Assembly: GCF_000027125.1 (NCBI RefSeq)
Contig: NC_017627.1
Direction: 5' to 3' (one strand)
DNA from: Escherichia coli 042
Lineage (GTDB): Bacteria > Pseudomonadota > Gammaproteobacteria > Enterobacterales > Enterobacteriaceae
DNA: 64,000 nucleotides
A program made the translations under genes and the position numbers. The notes beneath the pieces were generated by a model. The model saw nothing but the letters and a program-made list of their open reading frames with translations. It was not told the DNA's origin and searched no databases. Below are positions 1,799 through 43,525 of the stretch, piece after piece. Within the stretch, counting starts at the first letter, position 1. Every line of letters begins with the position of its first letter.

Positions 1799-2545
1799 TC
1801 ACAGCGCCAGAACGCCCAGCACAGCCAGATGACAGGCGTAGAATACCGGGAAAAAATCCCCGGGCCAGAAACGGGGTAATGATTTTCCTGCACACGACAC
1901 CAGACCAACGGTCAGCACCGTCATCACAAGACCGGCCACCGCCGCTGCATCACTGGTGGCAAGGTTAAGCGCCGGAATAACAGCCAGCAGGCAGGCGACC
2001 AGCGCCAGACGTTCCGCTCTGTCTTCCGCCCGGTACAGCCGGTGGCTGACTGCCAGCATCAGCAGCCCGGCAATGCCGTAACTGGTGCCGGACAAAGGCC
2101 CCCACAGGGCCATCAGAAGAATGGCCGCTGCTGTACGCCACCCACTGCGCGTTTCACACCACGTCAGCACCTGTGCCGCCACTGCAAAGGCAAACAGGAT
2201 ATTCCCCTCATACCAGGGAAAGCCTGCCAGATAATATGCGAACTGGGCAATAATTCCCCATCCCCACAGCCGGTTAATGGCTGGTTGCCGGATATGCGCA
2301 TGACGGGACAGATTCAGCCCCCACACCAGGGCAAAAAGCGGAAAGGCTCCTCGCCCGGTCAGAAACATCCATTCCTGCTTCAGCTGGAATATCAGATTGA
2401 TGTGGTCCAGTACCATCAGCACCAGTGCCACCGTTTTGATGATATCCCGCTGTCCGGGTGACCAGACCAGAAACGACTGCAACCAGGTATCGGTCCGTGC
2501 AGCCAGTGAATCGTTACGTGTCGTGTTCGTGTTATCCGTTGTCAT
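1799..2545 (-). CDS. traX: TraX pilin N-acetylase
   Basis: 248 aa polytopic membrane protein in conserved position between traI and finO. Confidence 0.92.
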   Translation of the reverse strand: MTTDNTNTTRNDSLAARTDTWLQSFLVWSPGQRDIIKTVALVLMVLDHINLIFQLKQEWMFLTGRGAFPLFALVWGLNLSRHAHIRQPAINRLWGWGIIAQFAYYLAGFPWYEGNILFAFAVAAQVLTWCETRSGWRTAAAILLMALWGPLSGTSYGIAGLLMLAVSHRLYRAEDRAERLALVACLLAVIPALNLATSDAAAVAGLVMTVLTVGLVSCAGKSLPRFWPGDFFPVFYACHLAVLGVLAL

Positions 2546-2564
2546 CAGCGTTTATCTTCCTGTA

Positions 2565-5500
2565 TCAGTCTCCGCCCAGGGTTTTCTCTTTCTGCAGGTC
2601 ACGGACCATATCCCGCTCCATCTGCTGCAGACGCTCCTGCAGCAGATTTTCCCGGGCAACCTCCCGGACCGCTTCCCGCTCCCGTTGTGATTCACGCAGC
2701 ACACTCTCCGGCAGTGCGGTTTCCCGTTCAGAAGTGGCAGTCCGGTCACGTTCCTGCCCGGCAATCTCCCTGACAGCCTGCTCTGTTTTGCCATCCGGCA
2801 GGTCAGGTTTGTTCTCTGCCATTTTACGGACAATTTCATCTGCGCGACGTTCCGTTTCACGGCGGATGGCCTCTTCAGCCTGCCGCTGTGCCAGCACTTC
2901 AGCTGTAACCGGTTCACCATTTCCGGCCCCCGGCTGGACGCTGTTATCCGGGATATCCCCCCACACGCGGCCACCGGTGATGGCACCGGGATTCCACGGA
3001 CGACCTTCACCGGCAATTCTCACCACCACACCGCTGTCAGGATTATCACGGGCAATCCGGACACCATCCTGCATATTATCAGCCAGCAGGCTTTCTCCGT
3101 TACGGCTGCCCTGCAGGGCCACGAACTGCGCATCCCCGCTGCCCTTCACCCGTCCTTCACCGCTGAATCCCCGCAGCCCGTTTCCGTCATCCGTGGTCAG
3201 TGGGTTCAGCCAGATACCGGCGGACCTGCCGTTACGGTCAAACGCCGGCAGTGCCACATACGGCTGCGGATATTTACGTCCCGGTGCAATAAACCGTGCA
3301 GGGCTGTCTCCCCCGGCCAGCCCTGCCTGACGGAGAACGGCACGGCCTGCCGCCACGTCCCGCAGTTCCCGTGCCGTACTGAACAGCCGCTCTGCATTCA
3401 TGACCTCCCGGTCCGGTTTCGGTTCAAACACATCGTGGGCTGTTCCTTTCTGTACGGCATTGTTAATGGCATCCGTCCAGCCCTGACGGTTATCGGTGTA
3501 CACCTGCACATGCTGCTTCATACGCGACAGGGCCACGTAGGCTGACTCAAAGCCTGCCATCAGTTTCCGGTTACCTTCCGTGCCTTCAAGCGCGATGGCA
3601 AAGGTTTCACTCGCCCCCTGCGCACCGTGGGCGGTGATGGCATAGGCCAGGTCAATATGTTGCTCTGCCCGCTCCTGTCCGGGGCGAATCACCCGGGTCT
3701 GCTGTCCGTCCGACAGCGTGACACTGTCACCGGAAACCGCTGTCACCGTCCAGACGCTGTTGGCCACATAACCGCGCTCCCGGTCACTCTTCGTGAAGCG
3801 CATCCGGTCGCCGGTTCCCACCCGGATGGTGTCCGGGGTGTACAGTGTGACGCCTTCAGCCACCGCCTCCCGGGGCGAAATCAGCCGCGTGTTACCTTCC
3901 GCATCCTGCAGGGTTATCAGCCCGTCATCCTTACTGACACCGGCAATCCGGTGATACACATTATCCACCAGGGCAAGGGCATCCGGGTTATTCTCCCAGG
4001 TGGAGAGACGACGCAGTTCCCCGTCGCGTATATTCGCTGTATTCAGGACAGGCACCATGACCTGCTCTTTCCCCAGCTCACCGGCCTTTTCCCGTGCATC
4101 ATGAATCATGCTGTTCAGTACGCGCCGGTCCTCATTCAGGTGCGTGACAATCAGCGTCTGCTCCCGTGCTTCCGGTGTCCTGCCGGTATAGTCGCGGACA
4201 ATGGCTTCATACAGTGTCATGGGGACATCCGGGAAAGCCTCGCCTTTCAGCATCGCCTTCTGCTGCGCTTCTGCCAGTTTCGCTTCCTGGCTGTGACTGA
4301 ACTCCGTCACGGAGTGCTCCGGTGCCCATGCGCCCTCCAGACGTGGCACCTGAGACGGTTTCACACTCTCAAGCCCGGACAGTGCCCTTTCCACATCCCG
4401 GTTAATCAGGCTGTATACCGCCTCCCGCAGTTCCGGCGTCTGACGCACAATCTCCTTCATGATGACCACATCGGCAGCACTGCGCGTCTGCTGGAGACGG
4501 AAAGGCTGACCGGGCGCGATGGCCTGCAGCTGGTCCGTGTCACCGCTGGCCACAGCACGACCGCCACCGGCCGCAATCAGGGCGTATGCCCGTGCCATGT
4601 CGGTATTGCCCACCATTGAGCTCTCATCGAGCAGGAACAGCGTGTTGCTGAAATCCGGCGTTTCTCCGCTGCGCTGCTGCAGCTGCGTGTCATGCAGAAA
4701 GGACGCCAGCGTCTGTGCATCCACGCCGGCGCTGCGCATCTCACCGACCGCACGGTGCGTGGGCCCCAGCCCCACAACTCGGGGACGCTCACTCGCCGGC
4801 AGCATGTTCACGGCTGACATCACCGCCCGGAACTGTGTGGTCTTACCCACACCGGCATAACCCTGTACCACCGTGAAACGGTCGGACGTTTCCAGTATCA
4901 TGCGGGTGGCGGCACGCTGTCCTGATGTCAGTTTCTCCATGAGTTCGCCAGGTACTCTCTCCATCAGCGGCGTGACCGCCTCCTTACCTTCGAGAATATG
5001 GCGAAGAATGCTCTTTTCTGCCTCATACGACGCACGGGAAACCAGCAGGCCTGTGCCATAGCCTTTTGCCACATCCACATACAGTAAATCACCGCGTTTT
5101 ATCTGCGCATTGATTTCCCCTCCCAGTTCAGTAAAACCGGTTCCTTCTGCAGCAAACGACTTCGCCTCTGTCAGCAGGTCCACCATGCTGAAGGCCAGGT
5201 TTTTACTTTCCAGCACAGGAAGGGCCAGATGAATGGCCTGGTGTGCCGGCGTGTGCAGCCCGGCTTTCTGCAGACTGATAGCGGTTTCCAGCGATGTCTC
5301 ACCGGCCCGCGCCTTTATCTGCTCAGAAACCACCGTAAAGGAGGGATGGCGGGCAAGTTTTTCCGCAGTACGGGTTTCATCCAGTGAGGAATACAGCCGG
5401 ACATCACGACCGCTGCGGGCCAGACCGTTCAGGGTGGCGTTGTCCATTGCCATCTGTGTGACGGAGGCAAACACCGTCGCACTGTCACTGACGGAATGCC

Positions 5501-7835
5501 CGGGCGTTTCCACCCAGCCGTTCTCCAGCTTCAGTGCCGTGAACGGTGAATCGCTCACAGGCAGGGAGGCCGGTTCAGCCCGCCCCGGCACAACAACCGT
5601 CATCGCATCTTCACTGACGGATGCCACCTGCAGGCGGTCACCGCCGGAGACGCGGAGTCCGGGAATTTTCCCTGTCACCCTCAGTCGCTCGCCGTCTGCC
5701 ACCGGCATTTTTTCCGGCCGGAACAGCGACCAGCTGCTGTCCAGGGAGGAAATACGCACCACCTGCGTTTCGCCCTGCGCATCCCGCAGGGTCAGGCTGT
5801 GACTCTGCGCTGTCACCCGGTCTATCACATAGCGGTCATGACTGCGTGTCTCCGGGTTCCACTGCTCCATCACCATCCCCGGTCGGTACATATCCCGCAG
5901 ATAACGGCTCCGGCTGTCCAGCCAGACCGGTGACAGTGCAGTCATGGTCACCTCAGGGTGTCCGAGCACGCCCTGCGTTTTCAGCTCACTGCGAATGGCC
6001 TGTGTCAGTATGGCCTGTTCCCGTACCCCGCTGACCTGTGCCACGCTCTCTTCTCCGGCTTTCACGCTGGCCGCAAAATCTCCGGCCAGCCGGGCATAGC
6101 GGACATTACGGTCCGGTTCACTGATGATGGTGGCCGGTCGCTGTTCTCCGCCCTGCCAGCGATATGTGTTCACCCCGGCATCCTTCATGGCCATCAGCGC
6201 ACTGCCTGTACCGGTTCGCTGCCCGCTGTCGGTTATCAGGACCTGTACGTTATGACGTGCGGCACCGTCCAGCAGGGTTAACGTCTCTTTCAGGGAGAGT
6301 TTTTCGCCCTGGTCGACGATAACAGTACTGCCCGGCGTGAAGGCCATGCCCTCCTGCAGCTGACGACGTCCGGTTATCAGCTCACCGGACAGCCGTTCAT
6401 CCTGCTTCAGGTTCATCTGCGAGCGACGGTCAGCGGCGATAATCTGCATCTCCCGCCCCTGCTCCCGGGCCATCATGACCAGTTCAGCCACCCGCTCACG
6501 CTGCCCGGCTGCACCGCCCTGCCCGGAAACAATGGCCAGCGACGGACGGTCCTGTGCCAGAACACTGACCGCATCGCTGTAACCAGCCGTCCGGGGGACA
6601 CTTTTCTCCGGATGTACGGTCACCCGGTTCTGTTTCATGATGTCACGACTGAGTGCCCGGACGGACAGCTCATCGAGCACATGAATTCCTGATGTGAACA
6701 GCCCCTTCTCACGGTCGAGGGGGATAAGCTGCTCACGACTGATGGCCTCATCGATACCGGCGCGTGCCCGTTCAATCACACCATTTTCCGGCGGCAGTAT
6801 ACCGACCGTTCTGGCCAGCACGTCCGTGTACGTAAACTGCACTTTTCGTTCACTTAATCCGGCAATGGCCTGTGTCACCGCCTGCTGCACATCCGGCCCC
6901 TCCTGTGAAACAGCCCCGGGCGCCTGCGTGTGGGTCTCCGCACGCTGATCCGCCGCGTCACGATATGCCCGGATGTCGAACCCGGTTTCCTTCAGCGTCT
7001 GCATCCATTCAGCCATTCTGACTTCAGGATCGACGTGCTGTTTGGATTTTCGCGTATCCAGTGCCGCCACATCCCGGGATTTCAGTGAGGCCCCTTCACC
7101 GACGGCCTCCCGGATAGCCTGTGAGCGTCCGGAGAAGGCTTCCACCGGTACGCCCGGCATCTCCCACATACCGTGCTTACCGACCACTTCGGTTTCATAG
7201 CCCAGTGCCTCAACCTGCTCTTTCAGTTTTTCCCGGTAGAGCCTGCCAAAGGCAATCTGATTAGCGTACACATTCTCAATGAACCCCGTTTTCCCCACTT
7301 TGTCACTGCTCAGTGTCTTCCACTCACCGTTATGCTGCGTGACATTAGCCACCACCGCATGCGTGTGTAACTGTGGTTCCTGATCGCGACTGGTGTCGTG
7401 GTTAAACAGTGCCATCACCAGATTACCGGTCAGTACCGTTTCTGACTGTCCGTCCGTCATCACCCGTGTGGAGGCCAGCGCCTCCACCTGACGAACAGCA
7501 AAGTCCACGGCCTGGTTATGTGCATCAATCAGGCGCTTATCGCCACCTAACATGGCCATCATGGAGACACTTTTGGGGGCGGAGAAGGTCAGGTCGTAGC
7601 CGGGACGATGCTTATTACTGCCATCCTGCATGCGGCTTAGATCCGCTCCGTCCGGCAGCCTTCCCTCCAGAAGACGGGTAAAAACATCCTTATCGACACT
7701 GCCCTGCAGTCCCAGCTGTTCAGCCCCCCTGCCGGCCCAGCGTTCTCCCATGCTGCCCAGTACATAGTAATTATCCTTGTCGGTATAATAGTTACCGGCA
7801 CTTCCGGCCGATCTGACCTGCGCGATACTCATCAT
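2565..7835 (-). CDS. traI: TraI relaxase/helicase
   Basis: 1756 aa, same length as F TraI; N-terminal relaxase region, helicase Walker A GYAGVGKT, long C-terminal domain. Confidence 0.97.
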   Translation of the reverse strand: MMSIAQVRSAGSAGNYYTDKDNYYVLGSMGERWAGRGAEQLGLQGSVDKDVFTRLLEGRLPDGADLSRMQDGSNKHRPGYDLTFSAPKSVSMMAMLGGDKRLIDAHNQAVDFAVRQVEALASTRVMTDGQSETVLTGNLVMALFNHDTSRDQEPQLHTHAVVANVTQHNGEWKTLSSDKVGKTGFIENVYANQIAFGRLYREKLKEQVEALGYETEVVGKHGMWEMPGVPVEAFSGRSQAIREAVGEGASLKSRDVAALDTRKSKQHVDPEVRMAEWMQTLKETGFDIRAYRDAADQRAETHTQAPGAVSQEGPDVQQAVTQAIAGLSERKVQFTYTDVLARTVGILPPENGVIERARAGIDEAISREQLIPLDREKGLFTSGIHVLDELSVRALSRDIMKQNRVTVHPEKSVPRTAGYSDAVSVLAQDRPSLAIVSGQGGAAGQRERVAELVMMAREQGREMQIIAADRRSQMNLKQDERLSGELITGRRQLQEGMAFTPGSTVIVDQGEKLSLKETLTLLDGAARHNVQVLITDSGQRTGTGSALMAMKDAGVNTYRWQGGEQRPATIISEPDRNVRYARLAGDFAASVKAGEESVAQVSGVREQAILTQAIRSELKTQGVLGHPEVTMTALSPVWLDSRSRYLRDMYRPGMVMEQWNPETRSHDRYVIDRVTAQSHSLTLRDAQGETQVVRISSLDSSWSLFRPEKMPVADGERLRVTGKIPGLRVSGGDRLQVASVSEDAMTVVVPGRAEPASLPVSDSPFTALKLENGWVETPGHSVSDSATVFASVTQMAMDNATLNGLARSGRDVRLYSSLDETRTAEKLARHPSFTVVSEQIKARAGETSLETAISLQKAGLHTPAHQAIHLALPVLESKNLAFSMVDLLTEAKSFAAEGTGFTELGGEINAQIKRGDLLYVDVAKGYGTGLLVSRASYEAEKSILRHILEGKEAVTPLMERVPGELMEKLTSGQRAATRMILETSDRFTVVQGYAGVGKTTQFRAVMSAVNMLPASERPRVVGLGPTHRAVGEMRSAGVDAQTLASFLHDTQLQQRSGETPDFSNTLFLLDESSMVGNTDMARAYALIAAGGGRAVASGDTDQLQAIAPGQPFRLQQTRSAADVVIMKEIVRQTPELREAVYSLINRDVERALSGLESVKPSQVPRLEGAWAPEHSVTEFSHSQEAKLAEAQQKAMLKGEAFPDVPMTLYEAIVRDYTGRTPEAREQTLIVTHLNEDRRVLNSMIHDAREKAGELGKEQVMVPVLNTANIRDGELRRLSTWENNPDALALVDNVYHRIAGVSKDDGLITLQDAEGNTRLISPREAVAEGVTLYTPDTIRVGTGDRMRFTKSDRERGYVANSVWTVTAVSGDSVTLSDGQQTRVIRPGQERAEQHIDLAYAITAHGAQGASETFAIALEGTEGNRKLMAGFESAYVALSRMKQHVQVYTDNRQGWTDAINNAVQKGTAHDVFEPKPDREVMNAERLFSTARELRDVAAGRAVLRQAGLAGGDSPARFIAPGRKYPQPYVALPAFDRNGRSAGIWLNPLTTDDGNGLRGFSGEGRVKGSGDAQFVALQGSRNGESLLADNMQDGVRIARDNPDSGVVVRIAGEGRPWNPGAITGGRVWGDIPDNSVQPGAGNGEPVTAEVLAQRQAEEAIRRETERRADEIVRKMAENKPDLPDGKTEQAVREIAGQERDRTATSERETALPESVLRESQREREAVREVARENLLQERLQQMERDMVRDLQKEKTLGGD

Positions 7836-10186
7836 CAGAAATCATCTCCCGGCTCAACATCCTCCCCACGCTCCCGGTGCACATTAATGTTCACCTCTTC
7901 ACGACGCTGCATCTGCTGCTGGATGTCCGGATGATTTTCCTGTTGCCATGCCTCATAAGCGGCCATATCCACCACTTCACCGGATTCACTGATCCCGGGT
8001 GGCAGTTGCTGTTCCATCTCTTCTTCCGGTTTCATTTTCAGCTCCTGCTCGATCCCCCCTGCCGGAACACTCACACCTGCATCTGACTTCTTATCATTGA
8101 TGACAGAAGACACTGGCTGTTGTGACTGTTGTGACTGTTGTGGCTGTTGTGGCTGTTGTGGCTGTTGTGGCTGTTGTGGCTGTTGTGGCTGTTGTGGCTG
8201 TTGTGGCTGTTGTGGCTGTTGTGGCTGTTGTGGCTGTTGTGGCTGTTGTGGCTGTTGTGGCTGTTGTGGCTGTTGTGGCTGTTGTGGCTGTTGTGGCTGT
8301 TGTGGCTGTTGTGGCTGTTGTGGCTGTTGTGGCTGTTCAGCCTGAGTTACGTCTTCTCCGGAGGCAACCTCCGGTTCGAAGAGGCTGGCCATCTGGCGAC
8401 CTTCTGCTTCCCTTGCAGCAAGTACGGCACTCAGACGGTTCTCCATTTCCGGGTTGATGTCACGCGGAATAAACTCCGGAGCGACCTTCGGTCGTGTCTG
8501 ATATTTCAGGGAGAGTTTGACTGCCGGATACGGTCCGGGCAGAGTGACATAGCAGGTCAGATCCGGCAGAGACTGAATGTCGGAATAACTGACCAGCGTC
8601 TGACGCTCCATATCCTTACCGGTCGATACCCCGTCACGTACCGGGTCAGCACCGTAAGAATACTGCTCGCTGGCTTTCAGGTGCTCTTTCTCACCAATTT
8701 CACCGGCAGCGAACTCTGCAATCTTATGGCTGGGAGAACGGAAAAAGGCACGGGTGTTCATGACGTCAAACAGCGTGGCCGCCGCTTTCTCACCGTAGAT
8801 ATCTTCCAGCTGGGCATAGGACTGGATACCAAACACATAACAGCCACCGAACTTACGGGCTTCCGGCAGGATCTCCACCAGGTCCGGCAGTTTGTGTAAC
8901 GTGGGTAACTCGTCACAGAAAAACCACACACGACGATTACGGTTTTCTCCCATTGCCAGCAGACCACGAATGGCAATGGACAGCCACATGGAGATCACCG
9001 GCTTCAGGGAGGCATGGGTGTCGGCATTCGACGAGATAAACAGCCAGCCGTTTTTCTGATCTTCCCGGACACCACGCATCCAGTCACGGATGGTAAAAGA
9101 CTCACCGTTATGCTCAATCCCCTGCAGGTAACGGATGGCTTTCACGTAGTTGGTCAGCACAGCACGGATGGAAATCGCCGTTTTCTCAATTTTCTCTTCC
9201 ACCAGGTTGGCTGCCGGTGAATTACGCAGGAAGGTACGCAGTTTTTCAATTTTGATGGAAAGCAGTGTGTCCACCAGTTTGCTGTAGCTGCGGTTGGGGT
9301 CATTACGCATCAGGTACGCCGCTTCCGCAAAAATGGTACGTCCTGAACCCTGCCAGAACGGGTCCTCTTTTGTGCCCATCGGGATCAGCGTGTTCGCGGT
9401 ATTATCAAAATCCGGCTGTGTCAGGCACTCCTTCCACAAATCCCAGGCGGCACAGCGGGCATCCAGCGGATTCAGGATTTTATCGATGGAGGGATCATAG
9501 TAACTTTTAACAAATTCCCCCGAACGGTCATAAATCACCACCATATCTCCACGCTGACGGGCGTAGTTGGCCAGACGACGGATAACTTCCGACTTACCGG
9601 CCCCGACCGTGCCGTGCAGACAGAAGTTCTGGATTTCGGAATCCCGGATAATCGGCAGGTCGCCAATCCGTATATCGGAGTCCTTGCCGTCTTTTTTCAG
9701 CATCCGGGCAACATCTTTCGGGTTTTCCGTCAGCTGACGACCACCTGTAACTTCATTTTCGCTCTGTTGTTTACCCTGACGCCCCAGAATCCAAGAGACA
9801 ACAAAGAAGGTGATCAGGCAAATAACCAGTGCCACGACAGACGCCAGAACGAATGCGGACCATAGCTGCTCACCGCACCAGATCATATATTTATCATGCA
9901 GTACCTGGGCAGCGTTCATCCGGAAGGTTTTGCCGTAATACTGGATCTCATATACTGGCTGGGACTTGATTAAATCCCGCATGCCTTCCAGCGTGGTACA
10001 CCACCAGTAAATACAGCCGTTCACAAACGTCTGCCAGCTTATTTTTACCCATAAAATCAGACCAACGAGTATCCAGAAAAAAATAAACAGGCAGTAAAGC
10101 ATGATATTGGCGATCTGGCTGAACATGCGGATACGCATGGACGCAATCTGACCGCCCTGGGTCATATCCTTTGCGTTAAAACTCAT
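7835..10186 (-). CDS. traD: TraD type IV coupling protein with expanded C-terminal QQP repeat
   Basis: 783 aa, [22 protein letters not shown]..., Walker A GTVGAGKS; stop overlaps traI start (TGATG). Confidence 0.97.
8116..8333. repeat. Tandem 9-bp repeat (CTGTTGTGG/CTGTTGTGA), about 24 copies, encoding (QQP)n in TraD
   Basis: Perfect head-to-tail 9-mer array visible directly in the sequence. Confidence 0.95.
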
Positions 10187-10236: not shown

Positions 10237-10977
10237 TTAATTCACAGAAACAGACCAGGTGTACCCTGTATGCCGGTGGTGATACCCGCCTGCAGTCCTG
10301 CCGGAAGAGACCTTCTCTGTAACAATGTCAGTCAGGCGCAATACTTCAGACCAGTCACTCCCGTGCGGAAACTGGATCTGAATAAAAAGGCGTACCCGTT
10401 CACGGTGATCCAGAACTGTGTCCGGTTCATAAAAACGGCCACTGTCAGGAGAAACACGGGACGTTTTATTGATGAGATCATACTTATCGGCAGGAGACTG
10501 CGATGACAGAGACCAGGTAATATTTTCGCCCTGATGACCATCAATACGACTGCTCCCCGGCGTCCATGCAATTTCCTGCGCACTCGCCACGATGATCTCC
10601 CTGGAGACTTCTGCCAGCTTTCTGGGTGTACCGAATACCGGTGCCAGCACACACAGGGACAACAAATTACAGCTGACCGCTTCCGGTTTAAGCGAATTGC
10701 TCCCGGATTTTTCAGGAAAAGATATTTTTGTCAGTATTTCAGTTAATTCCTTATGCCTGAGAGAATTAATAAAGTACATGATAAGCATCATGAGAAACAA
10801 TATAACAATAAGCCCTCCGATAACCACTAAAAGGTTAGTATCAATATTATTGCTGTACAGATAGTCTTTAGTGGTCACTGTATTATCCTGTATCACCGGG
10901 GGGTATTCAGTTACAGGCTTCTCAGTAAATTGATTATTCTCACCAACATATTCAGCGATATTGTCTGATGTCATAAT
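10237..10977 (-). CDS. Hypothetical single-pass membrane protein inserted between traT and traD (not a canonical F tra gene)
   Basis: ORF 10237-11040; likely start ATG at 10977 with GGAG about 9 nt upstream; one TM helix [25 protein letters not shown]; AT-rich 5-prime half. Confidence 0.5.
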
Positions 10978-11176
10978 GACTTTCTCCGGAAGATCCCGAC
11001 TTCGCCGGCAACACTTCACGGTCGCACAAAGAATTTGCACAACCGCTCAGTGTTTTCATATTTATTTCGGAAACGCCGGGAGGTGACAAAATTTATTTTG
11101 TTACATCCCGGGGTTGGACAACGAGCAACGCGAGGCGTCAGCAAGGAGGCCGGTCAGATCAGCCTCCTGACGAGGT

Positions 11177-41507: not shown

Positions 41508-42035
41508 TCAGAACGGAATGTCGTCATCGAAGTCATACGCGGGTTCAGACGGCTGCTGAGGCTCGGGCTGCGCGGCCTTACGTCCACGGCCTTTCGTTTT
41601 CGCGCCACCTTTTTTCAGTTCCGGCTGTGATTCCGGCTGAGGCTGACCGCTGAACTGTTGCGCCTCTTCCGGCTGAGTCTGAGTACCTGCGGCACGTCCC
41701 AGCATCTGCATGGTGCCCGTGGTCTTAACAAGAATTTCGGTGACGTAACGGGTGATACCGTTATCCTCCCAGCTACGGGTGCGAAGCTGACCTTCGATGT
41801 AGACCTGCGCGCCCTTGCGCAGATACTCACCAGCCACTTCCGCGAGCTTGCCGAACAGCACCACGCGATGCCATTCTGTCTGCTCCCGCATCTCCCCCGT
41901 CTGTTTGTCACGCCAGCTTTCTGACGTGGCCACCTGCAGGTTTGCCACTGCGCCCCCGTTGGGGATGTAACGGATTTCCGGATCTTTTCCCAGACGACCG
42001 ACAAGAATGACCTTGTTAATGCCACGAACTGCCAT
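41508..42035 (-). CDS. ssb: Plasmid single-stranded DNA-binding protein
   Basis: 175 aa from [23 protein letters not shown]..., acidic tail DFDDDIPF. Confidence 0.95.
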
Positions 42036-42052
42036 GATGTGTCTCCTTCTGT

Positions 42053-42690
42053 TGATGTTTTCAGCCCCCATCATCTGTTGAGTTTCGGGAGCCGCGGTTT
42101 TGACGTTTTGCGGGGACCTGCCTTTTGTTCCCTCCGGTATTCACCATCACCTGTTTGAGAACCTTCGCCGCAAGGGGCATCACTGCCACGGCCTGACGCA
42201 CCTGTCCTGGGCAGAACGCAAAATTTTTTACCGGGTTTTGGGTAAAAAATTTTGTGGGCTGTTCATTTACCCTGGACAGTCAGTGCGGCAGGTTGTGGCT
42301 GTATCAGCCCCCGGCGACAGGGGCTTAAACAGGTGAATGGCACCGGACAGAACAACGGGCAGGGACCCGCCGCAACGACGTGAAGCGCGGTTTGCGAAAC
42401 GGCGTTGCGCCTTACATCCTGGCGGCCTTTTGCCGGGATGCCGGGAGCGCAGGCCACGGCGCGACAGAGGCGGCGCGACCGGAACGGTCGCTGCAAGCCC
42501 GGGGTTTTCACGCATCGGACCGTAGCGACAGCCCGAAACCGCGCCAGCGGGTTCGGCGGAGACTGGCGGGTGCGCCAGCAGCTGCCTGTCGGAGTCGGGC
42601 CTGACGACCGGATGCCGCCAGGCAGCCGGGAGCCGAAGGTGCGCCCGGCAGACAGGACAACACTGCAGTAGTCAGAATCAGAGCGGCAGG
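42053..42690. repeat. Frpo-like repeat B, immediately upstream of ssb
   Basis: Near-identical to repeat A over about 450 bp and to repeat C over about 600 bp. Confidence 0.7.
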
Positions 42691-42700
42691 AAAAAGAAGA

Positions 42701-42784
<84 letters not shown>

Positions 42785-42961: not shown

Positions 42962-43525
42962 TCAGGCACGCAAACGAATAATCATCGTCGGGACATCGGT
43001 ATAAGCAAACGTGCCGCGCGGCAGCTCCTCGCGGATGTCAGAAAACGGTAACAGCTTCTCCTGCTGGCGCGGCCCGTTCAGACAGACGGCAACCAGCACG
43101 CCCCCCGGACGCAACAGGGAAAAAGCCCGCAGGATATGCCGGATATCCTGCCCGTGGATGAACGGCGGATTCATAATGATCCGGCTGTAATACTGCACCG
43201 GCTGCCATTCCATGAAGTCGCCACACTGTACCCTGACACCGTTAAAATTTTCCCGCAGATACCGGACCAGCCCGCTGTTAATCTCCACCGCATCACACAT
43301 GGCCTCCGGCGCGGTATCCCGAATCGCCCGCAGTATGGCCCCGGTGCCGGCAGAGGGTTCCAGAATGTGATCACGGTTGCTGATTTCCGCCAGCGTCACC
43401 AGGCGATCACAGACCGGGGCAGGACTCACAAAAAGCTGAGATTCAGCCCGGATTTCAGCAACCGGCGCGGCGTTATCCAGCCTTGCGCGCATCAGCCGGA
43501 TACGTTCTCTTAACTGACTGTGCAT
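42962..43525 (-). CDS. Small orphan SAM-dependent N6-adenine DNA methyltransferase-like protein
   Basis: 187 aa; motif I-like EPSAGTGAI followed by NPPF (motif IV); no adjacent restriction gene. Confidence 0.75.
   Translation of the reverse strand: MHSQLRERIRLMRARLDNAAPVAEIRAESQLFVSPAPVCDRLVTLAEISNRDHILEPSAGTGAILRAIRDTAPEAMCDAVEINSGLVRYLRENFNGVRVQCGDFMEWQPVQYYSRIIMNPPFIHGQDIRHILRAFSLLRPGGVLVAVCLNGPRQQEKLLPFSDIREELPRGTFAYTDVPTMIIRLRA

Follow-up and report, generated by a model that had tools for sequence, protein, structure and literature searches.

The traD gene of the window (the whole 64-kb stretch of DNA analysed here) carries an in-frame array of 25 nine-base units that encodes a glutamine- and proline-rich tract. 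This array is most probably a slippage-driven, in-frame length polymorphism within a length-tolerant, disordered tether of the coupling protein, of which the window holds a long allele from within the known range; the tolerance of length is judged here only from what occurs in nature. Three lines of evidence are considered below: the composition of the array and its position in the protein, the distribution of array lengths in public records, and the differences in copy number between plasmids whose flanking DNA is identical.

The array and its position in TraD

The open reading frame (ORF) that contains the array is assigned from its sequence as an F-type TraD coupling protein (Table 1). It matches the NCBIfam families TIGR02759 (834.1 bits, cutoff 521.35, residues 8-577) and NF010254 (1669.2 bits, cutoff 1221), while the ATPase domain of TrwB (PDB 1e9r) aligns with residues 161-573 (E=3.5e-47). 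In an alignment of 52 TraD homologues there is no variation at the Walker A residues G192, G197, K198 and S199. The gene lies between traT and traI, the same place in the tra operon as in annotated relatives with this gene order, and shares the bases ATGA with traI, whose start codon overlaps the traD stop. TraD of the window had been given as 783 aa and that of the F plasmid as 717 aa, and both lengths are right according to the ORF list and NC_002483.1. The F gene (NC_002483.1 89804-91957, 2154 nt) contains two units only (AEQPQQP), and the difference of 66 aa between the proteins consists of 23 extra units (69 aa) less a 3-aa difference just upstream. Between traT and traD there is a further ORF of 267 aa (10237-11040, minus strand) for which NCBIfam gave no match; in relatives this place is occupied by an annotated "hypothetical protein" of 245 aa, and F has no such ORF.

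Table 1. Positions of traD, its repeat array and neighbouring features in the window
Feature	Position	Strand	Basis
traI relaxase/helicase, 1756 aa, directly downstream of traD	2565..7835	-	NCBIfam NF010263, 3328 bits
traD, F-type type IV coupling protein (assigned from sequence), 783 aa	7835..10186	-	ORF list; TIGR02759, NF010254, PDB 1e9r
Distal C-terminal extension, residues 692-783: conserved helical segment 741-765 and acidic tip	7838..8113	-	F TraD comparison
Whole 9-bp array, 25 units	8114..8337	-	Tandem Repeats Finder and unit-by-unit parse
Two adjacent CAACAGTCA (QQS) variant units, array 3' end	8117..8134	-	Scan and comparison of relatives
Perfect core, 22.0 CTGTTGTGG (plus strand) or 21 CAACAGCCA in coding register	8135..8332	-	Regular-expression scan
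Conserved TraD core, residues 8-577: N-terminal membrane segments and TrwB-like NTPase domain	8456..10165	-	TIGR02759 span

The original prediction of a nine-base tandem array encoding a QQP tract in traD is confirmed, and the coordinates it gave (8116-8333) are at most 4 bases from the true ends. A nine-base periodicity is plainly visible across 7900-8500, and Tandem Repeats Finder reports a single array with a period of 9, 24.9 copies, 99% matches and no indels (score 434), which is the top-scoring tandem repeat of the whole window. On the coding (minus) strand the order of units is GAACAGCCA, 21 copies of CAACAGCCA, two of CAACAGTCA and a last CAACAGCCA, encoding EQP(QQP)21(QQS)2QQP at TraD residues 617-691. 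A regular-expression scan of the plus strand found 22.0 exact copies of CTGTTGTGG, a perfect run of 198 bp, with two CTGTTGTGA variants ahead of it. The array had been described as perfect, which is correct for these exact copies but not for the two units in which a C>T change replaces Pro by Ser. The same nine bases are found in 21 of the 25 units and there is no synonymous variation between units. The perfect core is the slippage-prone portion of the array, and the length of the pure run differs among relatives. An array of head-to-tail, DNA-identical units with a length that is a multiple of three has the form of a coding-region VNTR.

The unit is free of stop codons in all six frames (QQP/NSH/TAT and WLL/GCC/AVV) and therefore generates spurious ORFs on the opposite strand, of 82, 111 and 253 aa (8097-8899, plus strand). 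The "hypothetical protein" annotated under traD in many public records probably comes from the stop-free array. A second tandem array in the window, at 42699-42784 in the plasmid leading region, consists of 14.3 copies of GAGCAG with 97% matches. It is flanked by a 188-aa ORF (41508..42074, minus strand) and a 187-aa methyltransferase-like ORF (42962..43525, minus strand), and is itself covered by short repeat-generated ORFs only. Larger repeats are found at 60128-62617, where an IS3-family element of 1239 bp occurs twice, head to tail, in copies that are 98.4% identical and each encode a 296-aa transposase (NF033516, 315 bits). Both copies seem to have entered a further transposase-like gene.

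The tract lies within the C-terminal extension of TraD, past the end of the conserved core at about residue 577. Among the 52 full-length homologues the conserved columns reach approximately residue 605 and restart at approximately 710, with no invariant or near-invariant columns at residues 606-709 and near-invariant columns present at 710-780. An AlphaFold model built on the same alignment has a pLDDT of mostly 70-88 in the core, a pLDDT below 50 and no secondary structure at residues 602-728, and helices at 741-751 and 753-765 in the distal tail. Previous studies have described the C-terminal extension of approximately 150-200 residues as unstructured and have located the TraM contact in the C-terminal 8 residues of F TraD and the C-terminal 38 of R1 TraD (PMC3245843, PMC3159463). 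The last 92 residues of the window protein are near-identical to those of F and its acidic tip (10 letters) is identical to the TraM-binding tail of F; the protein thus carries an acidic tail of the TraM-binding type, for which binding is predicted. The tract had been placed in the tail that contacts TraM. It is indeed within the C-terminal extension, but it ends 92 residues before the C-terminus and so is outside the 8-38 aa that form the contact. The gap in conservation, the lack of predicted structure and the location of the TraM contact at the tip together argue that the tract is a spacer in the tail and not a contact surface.

Array length among F-like plasmids

Protein clustering at 90% merges repeat variants (the 723-aa and 717-aa representatives have thousands of members), so the lengths of cluster representatives are uninformative. 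Public records were ranked by array length using BLAST with a query made of the true flanks and approximately 70 synthetic units, query coverage giving the rank. The number of units was calculated as (span - 326)/9, which was confirmed on seven fetched loci; members of the F lineage have 9 extra bases upstream, so that for these the value is a length equivalent and not an exact count.

Complete E. coli genomes gave 3208 matching records, 23 of them longer than the window allele and 7 equal to it, with a longest array of 41 units in an intact TraD of 831 aa. PLSDB gave 3974 matching records, of which 25 are longer and 3 equal. The longest of these, on pNDM-EC16-50 (NZ_MG515250.1, positions 2507-3055, locus L001), consists of 549 bp, or 61 perfect CAACAGCCA units, and leaves the traD frame open, giving a TraD of about 891 aa; the PLSDB gene table for this record is without traD. 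Records taken at even intervals from the E. coli ranking have a median array length of approximately 8 units and an upper quartile of 12, and approximately 25% of them are at the F-type length. The TraD ORF is intact in all checked alleles of 3 to 61 units.

The window allele is therefore in the top ~1% for length, yet inside the known range. The original prediction had called the tract expanded, to be refuted by references with the same repeat number, and such references exist. Both pCV839-15-p1 (CP024975.1) and pCUVET20-PYO1.1 (NZ_CP115391.1) encode a TraD with 25 units and a length of exactly 783 aa, and the proteins of 41 and 61 units are longer still.

Origin and possible role of the length variation

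No plasmid in PLSDB is near-identical to that of the window: over a 25-kb tra segment the closest one reaches 98.1%, and for another 25-kb segment of the window the best match covers 82% at 97.6%. A search of complete E. coli genomes likewise yielded no match that spans the array region of the window at full length in one piece. As the window plasmid has no near-identical relative in either collection, variation between siblings is shown on other backbones. In a 146-kb plasmid family, the members of which have TraI, TraG and TraT protein accessions in common, the public assemblies of pAVS0533-A, pAVS0093-A and pCUVET20-PYO1.1 contain 3, 17 and 25 units respectively with no mismatches over 2 x 9.5 kb of flanking DNA, and a fourth member, pAVS0536-A, contains 6. 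It follows that changes in array length are far more frequent than point substitutions. The expectation that the array would vary between siblings is borne out by the three alleles on mismatch-free 19-kb flanks, as represented by public assemblies of these other backbones, and a copy number that differs between near-identical replicons is characteristic of a VNTR. Some of the public differences in copy number may be assembly errors. One such case could be UC4224, with 29 units, and its lambda-Red-engineered derivative UC4315, with 27, which have no flank mismatches and differ in whole-plasmid length by exactly 18 bp. The independently derived mutants UC4315 and UC4316 both differ from the UC4224 record alike, with 27 units, so the parental count of 29 may be an assembly difference; we have downgraded this pair from proof of change in laboratory time to a weak indication of it.

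The variant units give a further indication of how the array changes. The array of the window ends in SSP, while relatives of the same flank type (loci L010 and L012) end in PSP with one variant unit, which implies that a marked unit was duplicated or lost. Variant units are clustered next to one another towards the 3' end, as SS in the window and as a block of six CAACAGCCG units in locus L003. These blocks, together with the identity of units at all nine bases, argue for duplication and deletion at the level of the DNA and not for selection of QQP at the level of the protein.

We propose that the array is resized through slipped-strand mispairing or unequal recombination between identical nine-base units. 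Neither strand folds better as single-stranded DNA than shuffled controls (z = -0.44 for the plus strand and z = +3.18 for the coding strand), and the coding strand forms no structure in this state. Hairpin-assisted slippage was thus rejected as a driver; more likely, units that are identical simply misalign. Chi-site mimicry was also rejected, the closest 8-mer of the array (GCTGTTGT) having 2 mismatches to Chi (GCTGGTGG), as was a phase-variable on/off locus: the 9-bp unit lies inside the coding sequence and every change in copy number is in frame, so the array cannot switch traD on or off. In the protein the array would provide a Gln/Pro-rich, unstructured spacer inside the C-terminal extension of approximately 200 residues, and this spacer may act as a tether linking the ATPase hexamer, anchored in the membrane, to the acidic tip, which would dock oriT-bound TraM tetramers. 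Such a spacer appears to tolerate a very wide range of lengths, the plasmid with 61 units still being conjugative, and length would then be close to neutral. With such tolerance, mutation pressure would give F-like plasmids alleles that range from 2 units to 61 or more.

The copy number in the window could instead be an assembly artefact, with the repeat mis-expanded or collapsed so that its length would say nothing about the plasmid. The perfect run of 198 bp exceeds typical short reads, and thousands of partial public TraD proteins stop exactly one residue before the tract. The partial clusters P0017, P0018 and P0109 end in ...GEGVTQA or ...GEDVTQA, and P0017 (596 aa) has 4849 member sequences; short-read contigs therefore routinely break at the array. 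Several of the longest public arrays are also out of frame, with lengths that are not multiples of 9, or have split traD annotations. In the window, however, the array is read through in frame within 64 kb of contiguous DNA, the TraD ORF is intact and the internal SSP signature fits the flank type of the relatives. Alleles of 25 units and longer are common in independent complete assemblies, and an error of a few units would leave the conclusion unchanged. We consider an artefact to be very unlikely.

Another explanation, in line with the original prediction that copy number could tune relaxosome coupling, is that the array is an adaptive tuning knob, in which the length of the tract sets the reach or avidity of the TraD tail for TraM on oriT, or the gating of TraD on which RNA phages rely, so that a slippage-prone array would serve as a contingency locus through which plasmid lineages could rapidly adjust transfer efficiency, substrate promiscuity or phage sensitivity. 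The tract is suitably placed for this, between the ATPase ring and the TraM-binding tip. A rough estimate from a general polymer scaling law gives an rms reach of 12.5 nm for the tail of the window protein against 9.8 nm for that of F, approximately 25% more, and a longer tether could in principle alter the capture radius or the effective concentration. Several flexible TraD tails have been proposed to bind TraM tetramers on oriT by avidity (Wong et al., PMC3159463). It has also been suggested that F and R1 may differ in R17-dependence owing to heterogeneity of the C-terminus, QQP length included, and that phage pressure drives diversification of type IV coupling proteins (PMC3245843). The 61-unit plasmid pNDM-EC16-50 is still conjugative and transfers poorly, at a reported 2.5e-7 per donor; this is below related IncFII plasmids in a comparison heavily confounded by many other differences, and as a single confounded data point it argues weakly against full neutrality. 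Against a tuning role, we found no experiment in the literature that varied the tract alone, and the occurrence of 3-25 units on SNP-identical backbones, like the broad distribution of lengths, would also arise if mutation pressure acted on a spacer that tolerates them. As the units share one DNA sequence, the length is recent and not maintained, and a 9-bp unit offers no means of turning the gene on or off. A tuning role for the array is consequently unlikely, and selection on tract length itself, as a fast-mutating length dial on the tether from the ATPase ring to the TraM/oriT relaxosome, is distinctly improbable. If such a dial did exist, long alleles would trade transfer efficiency against, for example, resistance to R17/MS2 or promiscuity towards mobilisable plasmids, and the array would be a contingency locus of conjugative plasmids that is not of the on/off kind. 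An effect of tract length on relaxosome coupling would make it a simple, naturally variable determinant of the spread of resistance plasmids.

The preferred explanation, a slippage-prone array in a length-tolerant spacer, also has practical consequences. The array breaks short-read assemblies of IncF plasmids, and its variation makes the length of traD an unreliable character. The array could also be used as a fast-evolving marker to follow F-like resistance plasmids that are closely related.

Comparison with known repeat systems

In-frame, proline-periodic spacers are found in other proteins, such as the XPZ region of the group B streptococcal IgA-binding beta protein. Spacers of the XPZ type and the TraD tract are alike in having proline at every third position and in being repetitive and of low complexity, and there is no homology between them. 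The tract also gives weak compositional matches to NF038253 (25 bits against a cutoff of 1700) and to the repeat tails of V8 protease and inulosucrase. The likeness of TraD to all of these proteins is compositional only.

The closest systems are found in TraD itself. A full-text literature search for the bare unit CAACAGCCA returned unrelated primer sequences only, but polymorphism of the QQP repeat with the exact 9-bp unit is already published and is very common in F-like traD, its variation in length being described in two previous studies. Lang et al. (2011, Mol Microbiol 82:1071, PMC3245843) reported a length-variable QQP region in the C-terminal extension of TraD, which is QPQQP in F and 23 residues long in R1. 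The tract in the window corresponds to this region in protein, in tripeptide and in position, between the NTPase and TraM-interaction domains, and differs from it in having 72-75 residues, approximately three times the length in R1, and two QQS units.

At the DNA level, repeats of CAACAGCCA in traD were noted by a study of pNDM-EC16-50 and pSJ_94, with 61 and 11 copies respectively in tra regions that are otherwise almost the same (Infect Drug Resist 2019, PMC6402710). The array of the window shares its 9-bp unit and reading frame with both plasmids, while it differs from them in its 25 units, in its two C>T variants and in having traD flanks of a different sublineage. The two public alleles of equal length are also distinct from that of the window: the arrays of pCV839-15-p1 and pCUVET20-PYO1.1 are fully pure and the surrounding traD differs by approximately 1-2%, with 43 substitutions separating the flanks of the window allele from those of pCV839-15-p1.
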